From Deinococcus radiodurans R1 = ATCC 13939 = DSM 20539 (lineage in GTDB: Bacteria; Deinococcota; Deinococci; Deinococcales; Deinococcaceae), in assembly GCF_000008565.1 (NCBI RefSeq), contig NC_001263.1, positions 2,162,956-2,194,955 of the forward strand: a stretch of DNA of 32,000 bases, in the 5' to 3' direction. Shown piece by piece: positions 2,909 to 31,382 of the stretch. Positions within the stretch are counted from its first letter, which is position 1. The number at the start of each line of letters is the position of its first letter. The notes beneath the pieces are model-generated. The model was not told the DNA's origin and made no database searches. It was given only the letters and a program-made list of their open reading frames with translations. The translations under genes were made by a program, and so were the position numbers.

Positions 2909-4162
2909 TCAGGCTGCCGGGGTCTGGGGCTGCACCTGGGGGCGCGCAATCAGCATCACCACGAAGAGGACCGCGAGGATGCTGCCGCTGGCGATGTAAG
3001 GCGCGCCGTGGCCGACATGCTGGTACAGGTTGGTGCCGAGCAGCGGCCCGACCATGCGGCCCAGCGCCAGCGCCGAGGAGTTCAGGCCCGCGACGGCGCC
3101 CTGCCCGTCCTTGCCGACGCTCAGGCTCAGGGCGGCGCTCAGGGTGGGGCTCAGAATCGCGCTGCCGACGCCGATCAGGGCGAGCGCGGCGGTGATGGGC
3201 CAGTAGGTCGCCATCTGCGGCAGCAGGAACATCCCGGCGGCCATGATGACCAGGCCGACCAGAATCAGCGGGGTGGGGGGCAGTTTCTTGCTCAGGGGCC
3301 GAATGGCGCCGCCCTGCACGAGGGCCGCCAGAATCCCGAAGATGGCGAGCATCTTGCCGACCGTCTTGGCCGTTTCGCCGGGGTCGAGCTTCATCACGTC
3401 CTGCACGTAAAAGGAGATGGTCTGCTCCATGCCCACGCTCGCCAGAGTGGTCAGGGCGCTGGCGGCCAGGAACAGCGGAATGCCTCCCCGACTCAGCAGA
3501 CTGCGGCGGTCTACGGTCGCCGTGCGCGTCTGACCGGGATGACGGGTTTCCGGCACCATGAAGTACGCCAGCGCCGCCGTGAACAGGCCCAGGCCCGCGC
3601 TGAAGTACACCGGAGCCACCAGGCTGATGCCGCTGAGCAGGCCGCCGATGGCCGGGCCGAACACCACACCGAGGCCGAACGCCGCGCCGATGAGGCCCAT
3701 GCTCGCGGCGCGGTCGTCTTCACTGCTGATGTCGGCCATCATCGCCTGCGCGGTGGGCAGGGTGGCGCTGGAGAAAATGCCGCCGATGATGCGGGTGCCG
3801 ACCAGCAGGGCAAACAGCGTGCCGAGGGCCAGACCGCCGTTCATGCCCAGCTGAGCAAACAGGCCGAACAGCCCGAAGCTCACCGAGAAGCCGACGAGGC
3901 CCATCAGCAGGGTGGGACGGCGGCCGTGATGCTCGCTGCGGTTGCCCCAGATGGGGCTGAAGATGAACTGCATCAACGAGTAAGAGGTGGAAAACCAGCC
4001 GATTTGCGCCGGGGTCAGCCCCAGTTGCCGGCCCAGCGGCCCGATGATGGGAAACAGCACGCTCAGGCCCAGCATGGCGATGAAAATGGTCAAAAACAGG
4101 ATGATTTTGGTGCGCCCTTTGGTGCTGGCATCCGGCTCTGGAGCAGGAGAAGTCGCGGTCAT
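2909..4162 (-). CDS. MFS transporter (drug:H+ antiporter / tetracycline-efflux-like)
   Basis: About 12 hydrophobic segments and an MFS motif-A-like [14 protein letters not shown] between TM2 and TM3. Start chosen at ATG 4160-4162 ([10 protein letters not shown]). Confidence 0.85.
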
Positions 4163-25972: not shown

Positions 25973-26005
25973 GGGAGGGCAACCAGGCCTGGCCCCCTCC
26001 CTTTT
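25973..26005 (+). terminator. terminator-like hairpin between convergent genes
   Basis: GGGAGGG (25973-25979) pairs with CCCTCCC (25995-26001). The loop contains the palindrome CCAGGCCTGG. TTTT follows. Confidence 0.45.
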
Positions 26006-26006
26006 G

Positions 26007-26690
26007 TCAGCGCGTCCCGTCCTCCTCCAGCTGCCCGTCGAGCAGGTGCAGCGTCCGGTCGGCGCGCGCCGCCAGCCGTTCGTCGTGGGTCACGAGCAGC
26101 ACCCCGGCGCCGTCCTCGCGGGCCAGGGTCAGCAGCAACTCGGCCACCCGCTCGGCCCCGGCGCGGTCGAGGCTGCCGGTGGGTTCGTCGGCGAGCACGG
26201 CGGCGGGGCGCACCGCCAGGGCGCGGGCCAGAGCGACGCGCTGCCGTTCGCCGCCGCTGAGGACGCCGGGAAAGTCGCCGCCGCGCGGTCCCAGACCCAC
26301 CCGGTCGAGGAGCAGCTGGGCGCGGCCCTCGTCCGGCACGCCCGCGAGCATCCCTGGCACCTGCACGTTTTGCAGCAGCGTCAGATCTTCGAGCAGGTAG
26401 TGGTGCTGAAACACCAGCCCCAGCCGCCCGGCGCGGCGCTGCGAGCGGGTCTGGGTGCCGAGGGTGTCCACCCGCTCGCCCGCCCACCACACTTCGCCCT
26501 CGGTGGGCGCGTCGAGACCGCCGAGCAGGTGCAGCAGGGTGCTTTTGCCGCTGCCCGAGGGGCCGCTGACGGCCACCACTTCGCCCGGCGCGACGGCCAG
26601 CGACACGCCGTGCAGGATGGTGGCGGCGCCGTAGCGCTGCACGACGTGCCGGGCTTCGAGGGCCGGGGGAGCGGAAGTCACGCGGGGCAT
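26007..26690 (-). CDS. ABC transporter ATP-binding protein (LolD/MacB/FtsE-like), no adjacent permease
   Basis: Walker A GPSGSGKST, signature LSGGERQRVALARAL and Walker B LLADEPTGSLD. Start at ATG 26688-26690 (MPRVTSAPP). Confidence 0.85.
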   Translation of the reverse strand: MPRVTSAPPALEARHVVQRYGAATILHGVSLAVAPGEVVAVSGPSGSGKSTLLHLLGGLDAPTEGEVWWAGERVDTLGTQTRSQRRAGRLGLVFQHHYLLEDLTLLQNVQVPGMLAGVPDEGRAQLLLDRVGLGPRGGDFPGVLSGGERQRVALARALAVRPAAVLADEPTGSLDRAGAERVAELLLTLAREDGAGVLLVTHDERLAARADRTLHLLDGQLEEDGTR

Positions 26691-26752
26691 TGTAAGCGCA
26701 GAGCGTCTGCCAGGAACACGAGAACAAAGGCTGCCCACTAGAATCAGGTGTT

Positions 26753-27112
26753 ATGGCGACCCTGGAAATCGATTGCCCCATCTGCGGCGAAGTTCTCGAA
26801 CTCACCGAGCAGGACCGCGCCGAGCTGCAAGTCGGCGACGTGCTCGTGTGCGACTCGTGCAACGCCGAAATGGAAGTGACCCGCAACGGCGGCGGCGAAG
26901 ACTTCGAACTCGAACTGCTCGGCATCCTGACGGTGTGCCCGGCGTGCAGCGAGGAATTCGAGGTCACCGAAGACATGCTGCTCACCGCCCCCGTCATCGA
27001 GAGCGTGGACGGCGTGAGCGTGAGCCTCGTGGACTGCCCGCACTGCCACGCCCGCATCGAACTCGAACTGACCGACGAGACGCCGCCCGACGAGGAACAA
27101 CCGCGCCGCTGA
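26753..27112 (+). CDS. LysW-like double zinc-ribbon protein lacking the EDWGE tail
   Basis: The first ~45 aa MATLEIDCPICGEVLELT...GDVLVCDSCNAEMEV align with the downstream LysW peptide but retain CxxC...CxxC. A second ribbon has CPAC...CPHC. The acidic tail ends DETPPDEEQPRR. Confidence 0.65.
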   Translation: MATLEIDCPICGEVLELTEQDRAELQVGDVLVCDSCNAEMEVTRNGGGEDFELELLGILTVCPACSEEFEVTEDMLLTAPVIESVDGVSVSLVDCPHCHARIELELTDETPPDEEQPRR

Positions 27113-27176
27113 GTGTCTAGTCAATTGCAAATGTAAAAATTGAAAGCAGTTAGCCTATCAAACGCAAGGAGTGATT

Positions 27177-27350
27177 ATGGCGACTGTTCAATTTGAAAAT
27201 CCCGAAACCGGCGCGACCATCGAACTGACCAACCCCGAACTGGGCGAACTGGTGATCGACGACGAAACCGGTGTGGAATACGAGGTCGTGTCCATCGACC
27301 CGCCCCGCCTCGAAGCCGCCCCGCAGGAAGCGGAGGACTGGGGGGAGTAA
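27177..27350 (+). CDS. lysW: alpha-aminoadipate/amino-group carrier protein LysW (57 aa, no Cys)
   Basis: Hand-translated; the ORF is below the track's length cut-off. ATG 27177 with SD AAGGAG 27166-27171. MATVQFENPETGATIELTNPELGELVIDDETGVEYEVVSIDPPRLEAAPQEAEDWGE, then TAA 27348-27350. C-terminal EDWGE and an adjacent lysX. Confidence 0.8.
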   Translation: MATVQFENPETGATIELTNPELGELVIDDETGVEYEVVSIDPPRLEAAPQEAEDWGE

Positions 27351-27356
27351 GGTCGG

Positions 27357-27418
27357 AGGGTCTAGAGTCCGAGGGTCTAAGTGCTCCGTCCGCTTAGACC
27401 CTCAGACCTTTAGACCCT
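27357..27418. repeat. nested inverted repeat in the lysW-lysX spacer
   Basis: Inner stem GAGGGTCTAAG (27371-27381) / CTTAGACCCTC (27393-27403). Outer stem AGGGTCTA (27357-27364) / TAGACCCT (27411-27418). Confidence 0.55.
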
Positions 27419-27439
27419 TTGACCTGCCCCCAGGCAGCT

Positions 27440-28306
27440 ATGGCCGACCTCGCTGTTCTCTATGACCGCGTCCGCCCCGACGAAAAGATGCTGTTCGGGG
27501 CGCTCGACGAGCTGGGCGTGCCCTACGACAAGGTGTACACGCCGCAGCTCACCGTGACTTTCGACGATGAGGGCCGCGCCCGCGTGCCGTGGAAAGTCGC
27601 TATCGAGCGCTGCGTGAGCCAGAGCCGGGGCCACGCCGTGACCCGTGCGCTGGAAGGCTTTGGCGTCAAGGTCATTAACCCCTCGCACGTCATCGAGCTG
27701 TGCGGCGACAAGCTGGCGACCAATGCGCGCCTCGCCGCCGCTGGGCTGCCCACCCCGCGCACCGGGGTCGCCTTCGACGGCGAGAGTGCCCTGGGCCTCA
27801 TCGAGGAAATGGGCTACCCGGTGGTGCTCAAGCCCACCGTCGGCTCGTGGGGCCGCATGGTCAGCCGCCTGAACGACCGCGACGCCGCCGAAGCCGTCAT
27901 CGAGCACAAGGAAGTGCTCGGCGGGCCGCAACACGGCGTGTTTTACGTGCAGGAACTCATCAACAAGCCGGGGCGCGACATCCGGGCGTTCGTGGTCGGC
28001 GGGCAGGGCATCGGCGCGATTTACCGCACCAGCGAGCACTGGATCACCAACACGGCGCGCGGGGCCAAGGCGAGCAACTGCGAAGTGACCCCCGCCATCG
28101 CCGACCTCGCGCAGCGGGCCGCCGCCGCCGTGGACGGGCAAATCGTGGCGATTGACCTGGTGGAAGACCCGGCGCGCCAGAACGACTGGGACGGCCTGGT
28201 GATTATCGAAATCAACCACACGATGGAGTTCAAGAACTCGGTGAGCACCACGGGCGTGAACATCCCGCGCCTGATGGGCGAGTACGCGGTCAGTCTGCTG
28301 GGCTGA
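27440..28306 (+). CDS. lysX: LysX, RimK-family ATP-grasp ligase (alpha-aminoadipate--LysW ligase)
   Basis: [18 protein letters not shown]..., [43 protein letters not shown] and AIDLVE...[10 protein letters not shown] fit the RimK/LysX ATP-grasp pattern. It directly follows lysW. Confidence 0.85.
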
Positions 28307-28313
28307 TGGGCTG

Positions 28314-28448
28314 ATACGGTTTCAAATTGAGTCCCGGACATGTCCGGGCGCAATTTTGCGCGGAGCCCATGGAAAAAATACGGTTTTAAGGAGATGGACG
28401 GGCATCCGGCGCCTTTCCGGATGTTCGGGAATCGGATTAAAACCGTAT
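28314..28448. repeat. Repeat family R2, copy G (MITE-like, with terminal inverted repeats)
   Basis: ATACGGTTT (28314-22) and AAACCGTAT (28440-48) are perfect 9-bp TIRs, with a third ATACGGTTT internally (28378-86). The hairpin AATTG..CCCGGA-CATG-TCCGGG..CAATT resembles the hairpins of copies E and F. The distal half aligns with 9905-9960. Confidence 0.6.
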
Positions 28449-28557
28449 GAGAGAAAAAGTAACGGAGGCGGGGGCAAAGGCTTCTGCCTTTTTCGTTGGC
28501 CGGGTTCACAATGGGCCATGTCTGCGCCCGACTGGTCGTGCGGATCTGAGCGAAACC

Positions 28558-28802
28558 GACCTGCGCCCGCACGACCCGGAGCACGGCTGGCTGCACGCGC
28601 TGGCCCACGGCGCCGACGCCGCCCTCTGTTTTGCGCTGCGCTGCATCCTGCCCTTACCCGCGACGACGACCGCCCCGCGCCTGACGCCGACCCCCGGGCA
28701 GCCGCGCCCGGCGGCCAGGTCATCCCGGCCCCGGCGCGGGAGGGGTGGCCGGCTGAGCTGCTTACAGTGCTGCGGCTGGCGTTTCCGGCCTCCCCGGAGT
28801 GA
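28558..28802 (+). pseudogene. possible frameshifted C-terminal gene remnant
   Basis: One frame reads DLRPHDPEHGWLHALAHGADAA. A neighbouring frame continues plausibly: LFCAALHPALT...EGWPAELLTVLRLAFPASPE, then stop at 28800-28802. No intact ORF with a credible start; the upstream part is occupied by repeat G. Confidence 0.25.
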
Positions 28803-28865
28803 CCCCGGCGCGGCGCCAAGTCCCTTCACGCACCCTGTGAGAGCCTCGTGTAAGCTGCCCGGCAT

Positions 28866-31382
28866 ATGAACGTCATCGGCAAGGTCACGGTGCTGCCGCA
28901 GCTACCCGCAGAAATCGCGCGGCTGTCCGAACTCGCGTACAACCTCTACTGGTCGTGGACGCCCCGCGCGCAGGCCCTGTACCGCGACCTGTCGCCGGAA
29001 CTTTGGGAGCGCTTCCAGCACAACCCGGTGCGGCTGCTGCTGGAAGCGGACCAGGACCGCCTGAACGCGGCGGCGCAGGACCCCGCCTACCTGGGGCGTT
29101 ACGCGCAGGTGATGGCCGATTTCGACGCGTACATGGGCAAAAAAGACACCTGGGCGGCAAGGCACGCCCCGCAGATGAAGCCGGTGGCCTACTTCAGCAT
29201 GGAGTACGCCTTCCACGAGTCGCTGCCCATCTACTCAGGCGGCCTCGGCGTGCTGGCGGGCGACCACTGCAAGAGTGCGTCCGACCTCGGCCTGCCCTTC
29301 ACCGCCGTGGGGATGCTGTTTTCGCAGGGGTATTTCCGGCAACTGTTCGACAAGGACGGCTGGCAAAACGAGGCGTATGACGAACTCGACCTGACCACCC
29401 TGCCGATACAGCCCGCCCAGAGCGCGGCGGGCGAGGACATCCGCGTGTCGGTGCGGATTGCCGGGCGCGAGGTGGCGGTCAAGGTCTGGACGCTGCAAGT
29501 CGGGCGCGTCCGGGTGCTGCTGCTCGACAGCAACGTACCGGACAACAGCGAGGACGACCGCAAGCTGACCGCGCGGCTCTACGGCGGCAACCAGGAACTG
29601 CGGGTGCAGCAGTACGTGCTGCTCGGCGTGGCGGGCATCCGGGCGCTGCGGGCGCTGGACGTGCCGGCGAGCGTCTATCACATGAACGAGGGGCACGCCG
29701 CCCTGATGGCACTGGAACGGATGCGCGAGTACGTGGCGGCGGGCCAGGACTTCCGCACCGCCGCCGAACTCGCCGCAAGCAGCACCCTGTTCACCACCCA
29801 CACCCCCGTCGCAGCGGGCAACGACGCTTTCACCTATGAGCTGATGGACAAATACATCGGTGAGTGGCCGGGGCTGCTGCACGCCGGGCGCGACGAACTG
29901 TACGCGCTGGCACGGCACGACCAGCAGTGGGACGGCCACACGGTCCCGGCCTTTTCCATGACGGTCTTCGCGCTGAGCATGAGCCGGGCGGCCAACGGCG
30001 TCTCCGAACTGCACGGCGAGGTCAGCCGGGGCATGTGGAATTTCCTCTACCCCGGCGCCGAGGAAAACGAGGTGCCTATCGGCCACGTGACCAACGGGGC
30101 GCACAACCTGACCTTCACCAGCCAGCGGATGCGCGACCTGCTGTCCACCGTGCTGCCGGAGGACTGGACCGAGCGGCTGGAAGACGAAACGATGTGGCAG
30201 GCGGTCGAGCAGCTCACCGAGGAGCAACTGAGCAACGTGCAGCGCGAGATGAAGCGCGAGATGATCACCTTCGTGCGGGGCCGGGTGCGCGAGCAACTGC
30301 TGCGCAACGGGGCGAGCGCCGCCGACGTGGCCGCGACCGACAACCTGCTCGACGAGGGCACGCTCACCATCGGCTTTGCCCGCCGCTTTGCGACCTACAA
30401 GCGCGCCACCTTGCTGCTGCGCGACAAACCGCGCCTCGCCGCCATCGTGAACAACCCCGAGCGCCCGGTGCAGTTCGTCTTCGCGGGCAAGGCGCACCCC
30501 GCCGACAACCCCGGCAAGGCGTTTATTCAGGAGATCTACCGCACCAGCCAGGAACCCGAGTTCCGGGGCAAAATCGTGATTCTGGAAAATTACGACATGA
30601 ACGTGGCGCGCCACCTCGTGCAGGGGGTGGACATCTGGCTCAACAACCCCCGCCGCCCACTGGAAGCCTCGGGCACATCCGGCATGAAGGCGAGTTTCAA
30701 CGGCTCGCCCAACTTCTCCGTTCTGGACGGCTGGTGGCGCGAAGGGTATGACGGCACCAACGGCTGGCCGATTGGCGAGGAGCGCGAATACGCCGACCTG
30801 AACGTGCAGGACGACGCCGACGCCTTCGATCTGTACCAGCGGCTCGAACACGAAATCGCGCCGCGCTACTACGGCCACGCGCAGGGCAACGCGAGCTGGG
30901 CGCACACCGTGCGCGACGCCATCGAGACTGTCAGCCCGCGCTTTTCCATGCAGCGGCAGGTGCTCGACTACGTGCAGCAGTACTACCTCCCGCTGGGGCA
31001 GCGCGGCACGCAACTCGCCGACCACGGCGGCGCCCGTGCCCGCGACCTCGCCGCCTGGAAAGCCTGGGTCCGGCAGCAGTGGCCGCACACCAGCATCTCG
31101 GCGCAGGCGAACCTGCCCGCCACTGCCCGCCCCGGCGAGCAGGTCACGGTGTCGGCGCAGGTCAATCCTGCCGGCATCCGCCCCGAGGAACTGCGGGTCG
31201 AAGCGGTCCTCAAGCGCGGCGACGAAGTGCAGCGCTACCCACTCGCGCCGGGCGAAGGCGGGCAGTACAGCGCCGAGATTCCGCTCGACGACAGCGGTCT
31301 GTACTCGGTGGGCGTGCGGATGCTGCCGCTGATAGACGGCCTGAGCAACGACCTCGAAGCGGGCCTCATCAAGTGGGCCTGA
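28866..31382 (+). CDS. glgP: alpha-glucan phosphorylase (GT35, GlgP/maltodextrin phosphorylase type)
   Basis: YFSMEYAFHESLPIYSGGLGVLAGDH, YHMNEGHAA, FARRFATYKR and EASGTSGMKA (PLP-Lys region), 838 aa. Confidence 0.9.
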   Translation: MNVIGKVTVLPQLPAEIARLSELAYNLYWSWTPRAQALYRDLSPELWERFQHNPVRLLLEADQDRLNAAAQDPAYLGRYAQVMADFDAYMGKKDTWAARHAPQMKPVAYFSMEYAFHESLPIYSGGLGVLAGDHCKSASDLGLPFTAVGMLFSQGYFRQLFDKDGWQNEAYDELDLTTLPIQPAQSAAGEDIRVSVRIAGREVAVKVWTLQVGRVRVLLLDSNVPDNSEDDRKLTARLYGGNQELRVQQYVLLGVAGIRALRALDVPASVYHMNEGHAALMALERMREYVAAGQDFRTAAELAASSTLFTTHTPVAAGNDAFTYELMDKYIGEWPGLLHAGRDELYALARHDQQWDGHTVPAFSMTVFALSMSRAANGVSELHGEVSRGMWNFLYPGAEENEVPIGHVTNGAHNLTFTSQRMRDLLSTVLPEDWTERLEDETMWQAVEQLTEEQLSNVQREMKREMITFVRGRVREQLLRNGASAADVAATDNLLDEGTLTIGFARRFATYKRATLLLRDKPRLAAIVNNPERPVQFVFAGKAHPADNPGKAFIQEIYRTSQEPEFRGKIVILENYDMNVARHLVQGVDIWLNNPRRPLEASGTSGMKASFNGSPNFSVLDGWWREGYDGTNGWPIGEEREYADLNVQDDADAFDLYQRLEHEIAPRYYGHAQGNASWAHTVRDAIETVSPRFSMQRQVLDYVQQYYLPLGQRGTQLADHGGARARDLAAWKAWVRQQWPHTSISAQANLPATARPGEQVTVSAQVNPAGIRPEELRVEAVLKRGDEVQRYPLAPGEGGQYSAEIPLDDSGLYSVGVRMLPLIDGLSNDLEAGLIKWA

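Follow-up and report, generated by a model that had tools for sequence, protein, structure and literature searches.

A Cys-less LysW and its tail-less double zinc-ribbon paralogue beside lysX in Deinococcus radiodurans

A window of 32,000 nucleotides (nt) from Deinococcus radiodurans R1 (contig NC_001263.1, positions 2,162,956 to 2,194,955 of the forward strand) contains three co-oriented genes on the plus strand, which encode a 119-amino-acid (aa) double zinc-ribbon protein, a 57-aa form of the lysine-biosynthesis carrier LysW that has no cysteine at all, and the ligase LysX. LysW is the founding example of a protein acting as both protecting group and carrier in primary metabolism, and in Thermus and Sulfolobus the Glu of its C-terminal EDWGE motif is the attachment site for alpha-aminoadipate. 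Here, we report that the short protein is predicted to be the carrier itself and that the long one, for which we use the working label dz for gene and protein alike, is a paralogue of LysW that lacks the acceptor tail and originated before the carrier lost its zinc site. The identities of the genes, the paralogy, the phyletic pattern and the synteny are directly supported by the comparisons below, and we hold the overall description of identity, paralogy and history with high confidence. Further, we lean slightly towards regarding the locus, in combination with the mechanism proposed below, as a three-gene remnant (dz-lysW-lysX) of the ancestral lysine (alpha-aminoadipate) cluster of the Deinococcus-Thermus phylum.

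The 57-aa open reading frame (ORF; 27177-27350, plus strand) matches the equivalog model TIGR01206 over its full length with 113.3 bits (cut-off 53.2), the Pfam family PF21344 (Zn_ribbon_LysW) with 43.1 bits (gathering score 27) and, in a search of the PDB, Thermus thermophilus LysW (TtLysW, entry 3WWL) with E = 1.8e-16. The protein contains neither Cys nor His and ends in ...QEAEDWGE. The CxxC...CxxC zinc site of the TtLysW and TkLysW crystal structures is absent, the ligand positions being occupied by N8, T11, D28 and T31; because the score nonetheless lies well above the TIGR01206 cut-off, a protein can belong to the family, as that model defines it, without a zinc site. An earlier note, made from the letters of the window alone, had taken the peptide for a genuine LysW without metal ligands, and these matches bear that out. 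Compared with TtLysW (PDB 3WWL, 3WWN and 5EIO), the protein is alike in its full-length alignment, its EAEDWGE end, the adjoining lysX, its acidity and its predicted fold, but differs in having Asn8, Thr11, Asp28 and Thr31 in place of Cys and in a 3-residue N-terminal extension. Its AlphaFold2 (AF2) model has a mean predicted local distance difference test (pLDDT) value of 86.6 and superposes on crystal TtLysW with template modelling (TM) scores of 0.80-0.93. The same note called the ORF uncalled, which was true of the ORF track that it had been given, but the public gene calls on this contig do contain the 57-aa gene.

LysW normally lacks Cys in Deinococcus and related Deinococcales, as it does in some Meiothermus. 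Full-length homologues (72-96% identity) fall into about 100 clusters at 90% identity, drawn from Deinococcus, Deinococcales metagenome-assembled genomes (MAGs) and Meiothermus; these have zero Cys in the 57-aa part, and all but one of them keep EDWGE, so that the ORF is conserved in relatives and the lack of Cys is general in Deinococcus. Every named Deinococcus LysW recovered is Cys-less, while four-Cys relatives (P0224 and P0226) were recovered as well. Where a cluster does contain Cys, which is so in only a few, the gene call is longer and these residues belong to frameshifted or extended sequence beyond the LysW part. Across 34 diverse LysW sequences 15 columns are invariant, the whole of EDWGE (E53, D54, W55, G56 and E57) among them. 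All inspected Deinococcus and Meiothermus loci have a strong AAGGAG or AAAGGAG ahead of lysW; in the window this Shine-Dalgarno sequence (AAGGAG, 27163-27168) ends the 64-nt spacer between dz and lysW (27113-27176), 6 nt before the lysW ATG.

The literature treats the four Cys as a conserved feature of LysW-like proteins and as the zinc ligands of the TtLysW and TkLysW crystal structures (PMC10433800), and from that standpoint the Cys-less ORF could be decaying or non-functional, with the real carrier encoded elsewhere. We give this possibility next to no weight, since the invariant columns with EDWGE, the 113 bits on the equivalog model, the conserved Shine-Dalgarno sequence and the uniform absence of Cys from the named Deinococcus proteins all stand against it, and T. 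thermophilus and D. radiodurans are moreover described as lacking the diaminopimelate (DAP) route to lysine (PMC10433800). The 57-aa gene is instead predicted to encode a working LysW carrier, which retains its acceptor tail and its LysX neighbour and belongs to a family under purifying selection throughout. As a gene, Cys-less lysW is already known and is not peculiar to this contig: a proteogenomics paper on D. deserti from 2009 listed lysW in three genomes, as Deide_13440, Dgeo_1152 and an unannotated 57-aa ORF upstream of DR_2194 (PMC2669436), and NCBI now names the Deinococcus 57-aa proteins LysW. In the literature reached, we found no paper remarking on the lack of Cys in Deinococcus LysW. 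A metagenomic LysW of 55 aa (P0221) shares 72% identity with the Deinococcus form and as much with the Thermus form. Its first CxxC is present as CPEC and its second is replaced by DEDTG, so that it looks like an intermediate in zinc-site loss.

The dz gene (26753-27112, plus strand) encodes a protein that starts with MATLEIDCPIC and ends with DETPPDEEQPRR (...EEQPRR), and that carries a first ribbon CPIC...CDSC followed by a second, CPAC...CPHC. Its eight Cys (C8, C11, C33, C36, C62, C65, C95 and C98) are the same in all of the 12 to 45 homologues compared, which range from Thermus to Deinococcus, and for this reason the protein very probably binds two zinc ions. The net charge of -25 is comparable to that of LysW, and Asp plus Glu make up 25-31% of the residues in both proteins; because dz is so strongly acidic, binding to DNA or RNA is unlikely. 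The C-terminal EDWGE is absent from dz and from all of the approximately 140 homologues examined, and dz reaches only 27.7 bits on TIGR01206 (cut-off 53.2), and therefore we do not file it as a LysW carrier. In its AF2 model (pLDDT 80.5) a strand-strand-helix-strand-strand module is repeated twice and the C-terminus is disordered. The first ribbon keeps the last-strand signature of LysW, CxxC-x-A-E-x-E-V, and the second has a looser version, E-x-E-hydrophobic (CPHCHARIELEL). The ORF positions, the AAGGAG, the peptide free of Cys and His, the RimK-type LysX that follows, and the second ribbon and tail end of dz were all reproduced as the earlier note had read them, and its description of a long protein that keeps the metal ligands twice and lacks the acceptor motif extends to the surveyed members of the family.

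That note had also proposed that the two small proteins are paralogous, and several comparisons agree on this point. BLASTP aligns dz with the 57-aa LysW at 31% identity over 42 aa (E = 5e-5), with C8, C11, C33 and C36 of dz opposite N8, T11, D28 and T31 of LysW; the pairing at the Cys positions is thus as the note gave it, but the alignment contains one 5-residue gap and does not run residue for residue. A LysW hidden Markov model (HMM), run on the 603 fragments of a six-frame translation of the window, matched these two ORFs (1.5e-38 and 1.8e-7) and nothing else. PF21344 scores 30.8 bits on dz residues 7-45, above its gathering score of 27, and in the dz orthologues of a MAG and of Meiothermus it is the top Pfam match, in two stretches (58.3 and 46 bits). 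In hhalign comparisons, the family of N-terminal dz ribbons matches the LysW family with a probability of 96.9% (E = 1.6e-10), so that the similarity of the 119-aa protein to LysW holds under profile comparison; the C-terminal ribbon matches LysW with 74.9%, and the N- and C-terminal ribbons match each other with 97.1%. A profile search of the PDB with dz recovers TtLysW and TkLysW, and in Thermus LEVVSLDPLEVE of the first dz domain matches the position of LEVVGLDPLRLE in LysW. These results indicate that dz and LysW are true paralogues with a common LysW globular domain, and that dz consists of this domain and the start of the linker, with a second LysW-like ribbon where LysW has its acceptor tail. 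Set against TtLysW, dz thus has the globular domain twice, with an LDP-type linker start after the first, and it lacks both the EDWGE acceptor and the flexible tail, so that it is no carrier of the known kind. A 103-aa protein from a Joint Genome Institute (JGI) metagenome (P0284) carries two LysW globular domains in tandem that have hardly diverged; an LDPL linker comes after each, and the protein ends in IEEEK.

For the phyletic pattern, one genome per species was scanned with TtLysW and 55 loci were searched with HMMs of both families, in addition to gene-context look-ups. A dz gene adjoins a lysW with four Cys in two species of Thermus, at two Oceanithermus-like loci and in a MAG lineage (L004 and L014). 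It likewise adjoins a lysW without Cys in Meiothermus granaticius, D. maricopensis, a D. peraridilitoris-like contig, a Deinococcales MAG and the lineage of the window. The remaining combinations lack dz: seven Trueperaceae-type loci have a Cys-less LysW and no dz in their flanks, and Chloroflexota, Halobacteria and other phyla have a four-Cys LysW and no dz. Gene order follows a common pattern, since dz lies between lysU and lysW, in the order hcs-lysT-lysU-dz-lysW-lysX-lysY, in Thermus, Meiothermus, the L004 MAG lineage, D. maricopensis, the D. peraridilitoris-like contig and the Deinococcales MAG, and the order lysU-dz-lysW-lysX-lysY is found in Oceanithermus too. In the lineage of the window the cluster is scattered and only dz-lysW-lysX still stand together.

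The ORF between lysU and lysW in Thermus (L009 and L010) is the orthologue of dz, having the same position, eight Cys with the same spacing and an acidic composition. The Thermus and Meiothermus proteins share about 27-39% identity with dz of the window and differ from it in lacking a 10-residue insertion in the second ribbon and in having a PDWSEV motif and a poly-acidic end. PDB entry 3WWL labels LysW 'OrfF'. By synteny we take the Thermus orthologue of dz to be TTHA1909, and it is presumably the 'orfE' of an older nomenclature. The operon order in strain HB8 is given as TTHA1911-1910-1909-1908, with TTHA1909 labelled 'hypothetical protein' (PMC7662524).

The Trueperaceae-type clusters (L022, a Truepera sp., and L067/L068) encode Cys-less LysW proteins of 54-55 aa with TPxG...SDDG and without a neighbouring dz. 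One Trueperaceae locus has a contiguous lysT-lysU-lysW-lysX without dz, and another has a lysW-lysX-lysY-lysZ-lysJ-lysK operon in which lysW comes first. In these proteins the Cys are replaced by Thr, Ser and a one-residue deletion, and their identity is 61-66% to Thermus LysW versus 49-55% to the Deinococcus form. Because the replacements differ and the protein is closer to Thermus LysW, the Trueperaceae loss is independent, and Cys were lost from LysW at least twice.

This pattern decides how the two proteins of the window are related in history. The earlier note had viewed them as a duplicated carrier that diverged by complementary losses, one copy keeping the metal site and the other the tail, and such subfunctionalisation by linked losses, with the ribbon protein supplying, for example, a zinc-dependent function to the pair, would fit both the true paralogy of the two proteins and the co-occurrence of both states in the window, across Deinococcus and in Meiothermus granaticius. 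However, dz stands beside a four-Cys LysW in Thermus, Oceanithermus and the L004/L014 lineage, and therefore the tail-less copy predates the loss of the LysW zinc site; Trueperaceae have a Cys-less LysW without dz nearby, and therefore LysW can lose zinc without a partner; and the Cys disappeared at least twice through different substitutions. We accordingly consider linked losses very unlikely, and this part of the note is not supported. The comparisons point instead to a duplication that is older than the zinc-site loss and not coupled to it, and to a pair of genes that is ancient and widespread in the Deinococcus-Thermus phylum.

A separate question is whether dz could itself be a carrier or acceptor, either for a different ATP-grasp ligase or in a different pathway (an ornithine/arginine branch or the synthesis of a secondary metabolite, for example), with an acidic residue inside the chain or another one at its C-terminus as the attachment point. 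Acidic tails occur in the family, as do acidic motifs with W after the second ribbon, including PDW[SG][ED]V in Thermaceae (L009-L012), the ELEWED end of the Deinobacterium chartae protein (P0245) and the EEDEEW end of that of T. thalpophilus (L009), and LysW-like proteins with tails other than EDWGE are found in Acidobacteriota. However, the C-terminus of dz is unconserved even within Deinococcus, ending here in EEQPRR, the W or F position lies on the last beta-strand of the AF2 model and not in a flexible tail, and a second ATP-grasp ligase is absent from the window and from the orthologous clusters examined. A carrier for another pathway, which the earlier note had listed among its options, is in our judgement unlikely. 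The motif with W after the second ribbon was also considered as a vestigial EDWGE and set aside, given its place on the predicted last strand and the F, L, Y or Q that other members have there; the end of the D. chartae protein is reminiscent of EDWGE but likewise lies on the last strand. Regarding the Acidobacteriota (Terriglobia) MAGs, matches at about position 3001-3180 of five loci (L059-L063) are four-Cys LysW-like ORFs whose tails read ...DDEDGFV, ...GEGSW, ...KGSW, ...EAEDEW and ...DAEEL; going by these tails, the proteins may be carriers for a different ligase or pathway.

More serious is the alternative that dz is a generic zinc or redox protein, such as a thiol-zinc redox switch, a factor in translation or assembly, or a zinc buffer, and is carried along in the operon with no functional tie to LysW docking. 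The eight invariant Cys in a genus known for its oxidative-stress biology are in line with such a role, as are the weak matches of dz to many zinc-ribbon Pfam models and to the zinc-finger region of HypF. Against it, the place beside lysW is kept across both orders of the phylum and, after the break-up of the cluster, together with lysW-lysX, the sequence resembles the LysW domain in particular and not zinc ribbons in general, and the extreme acidity mirrors that of LysW. We therefore see a generic protein as having a modest chance. The family is a narrow one, since a search of 1.84 billion cluster representatives yielded no more than 51 at E <= 1e-3. All named members among them are Deinococcales, and the best 120 matches of the dz profile search are all Deinococcus, the distant members having been obtained by other routes. 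The double LysW-ribbon family of Deinococcota (orfE-like, without a curated model) is characterised by two CPxC...CxxC ribbons with eight Cys, an acidic composition and a length of about 95-125 aa, all of which dz displays, and the dz gene also has the position typical of the family, directly before lysW (in the ancestral cluster, between lysU and lysW). Public names for its members are inconsistent and partly wrong, including 'Zinc finger motif protein', 'DPH-type MB domain', 'YbaR (Trm112 family)', 'Elf1', 'RPC12/RpoP', 'phage terminase large subunit family protein' and, once, 'LysW'. In addition, dz just passes the NCBIfam model YnfU (38 versus 36 bits), which looks spurious.

The reading that we prefer, which is in keeping with the decoy, scaffold or regulator suggested in the earlier note, is that dz is a non-substrate mimic of LysW. 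The acidic globular domain of LysW is the part recognised by the pathway enzymes, as established for T. thermophilus. Its acidic residues mediate electrostatic binding to each enzyme (10.1101/2021.12.28.474397). In the window, LysX would ligate alpha-aminoadipate to the C-terminal Glu of the Cys-less LysW, whose ribbon would presumably be held by hydrogen bonds of Asn, Thr, Asp and Thr instead of zinc. Meanwhile, dz may dock on the basic LysW-binding surfaces of LysX, LysZ, LysY, LysJ or LysK, acting either as a scaffold that bridges two enzymes or as a competitor that tunes flux. We take dz for a LysW mimic because it has LysW-like acidity, LysW domains, the last-strand signature and a lasting linkage to lysW-lysX, and not for a carrier because it is never seen with an EDWGE acceptor. 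For this specific mechanism of docking on the pathway enzymes our confidence is limited, and we put it forward as a possible explanation that still falls short of probable. In its wider form, also tentative, dz would be a dedicated component of carrier-mediated lysine synthesis across the phylum, T. thermophilus included, with its two domains occupying the docking sites of two enzymes at once, giving a metabolon of the LysX/LysZ/LysY type or a competitive brake on flux. Through the eight zinc-thiolate Cys, the interaction might then respond to oxidative stress or to the supply of zinc, while in Deinococcus the carrier itself would have been made zinc-independent and oxidation-proof. The zinc independence of this LysW is itself inferred, from the replaced ligands and the predicted fold.

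Several points weigh against this picture. A Foldseek search with the whole dz model gave no significant E-value, although its highest-probability match is S. tokodaii LysW (0.96). The dz protein is dispensable in at least the Trueperaceae, where the pathway occurs without a neighbouring dz. AF2, whose model of LysW underlies part of the case for zinc independence, takes no account of metal dependence. Finally, our literature search found no description of the double-ribbon protein or its function, in a body of papers from which the key primary T. thermophilus ones, where a phenotype may stand, were beyond reach.

The Cys-less LysW has parallels among the ribosomal proteins L31, L33, L36 and S14, which exist as Cys-containing (C+) and Cys-less (C-) zinc-ribbon forms, with recurrent loss in different lineages. 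In both cases, a small zinc ribbon keeps its fold and function after its four ligand Cys have been replaced. The C+ and C- ribosomal proteins are, however, interchangeable paralogues regulated by zinc supply, whereas here the Cys-less LysW is the only carrier, and unlike the C+ ribosomal forms the Cys-rich dz, having no acceptor tail, is no functional equivalent of LysW. Since whole genera run the pathway on Cys-less LysW and the zinc site was lost at least twice, the metal would be structural and dispensable, and the Cys-less protein would represent a natural zinc-free, oxidation-resistant carrier for engineering. If dz does dock on the pathway enzymes, it would add a new regulatory or scaffolding layer to carrier-protein pathways.

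The third gene, lysX (27440-28306, plus strand), starts 89 nt downstream of lysW and encodes the RimK-type ATP-grasp alpha-aminoadipate-LysW ligase, 288 aa long in the public gene calls. Its product matches TIGR02144 (LysX_arch) with 422 bits (cut-off 275.6), LysX_preATP_grasp with 108 bits and RimK with 78 bits. Between the two genes lies a near-perfect hairpin of 96 nt (27338-27433, plus strand) built of nested inverted GGTCTA/TAGACC repeats, which reaches from the last four sense codons of lysW (DWGE) across the stop codon and through most of the lysW-lysX spacer. The RNA fold has an energy of -71.5 kcal/mol (z = -6.35 versus shuffled sequences). The hairpin is not present in the lysW-lysX spacer of D. 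maricopensis, and an Rfam search of 26000-29000 at E <= 1 returned only sub-threshold eukaryotic microRNA and long non-coding RNA noise on it. It could be a Deinococcus intergenic repeat element, or a structure that stabilises or attenuates the mRNA or sets the LysW:LysX expression ratio.

The AT-rich dz-lysW spacer has a GC content of 38-43%, versus about 65-70% around it, and contains the palindrome CAATTGCAA. Neither an Rfam family nor a consensus promoter matches it, and D. maricopensis shows no conservation of it; for want of an Rfam match and of such conservation, the idea of a riboswitch or leader here was rejected. Over 26500-28500, a consensus scan found no sigma-70 promoter and no intrinsic terminator. 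Upstream of dz, a -10-like hexamer, TAGAAT (26739-26744, plus strand), read from the sequence, lies 8 nt before the dz ATG, and an SD-like element there, AGGTG, is a mere 2 nt from that ATG. Three Deinococcus loci have TAGAAT or TAGACT 6-8 nt ahead of the dz start codon, namely those of the window, of D. maricopensis (L064, 7989-7994) and of the D. peraridilitoris-like contig (L065, 3989-3994). The counterpart in the Thermales and in lineages L004 and L066 is TAAACT, which includes the stop codon of lysU. From its position, the hexamer may be part of a promoter for a dz-lysW-lysX transcript that is leaderless or nearly so.

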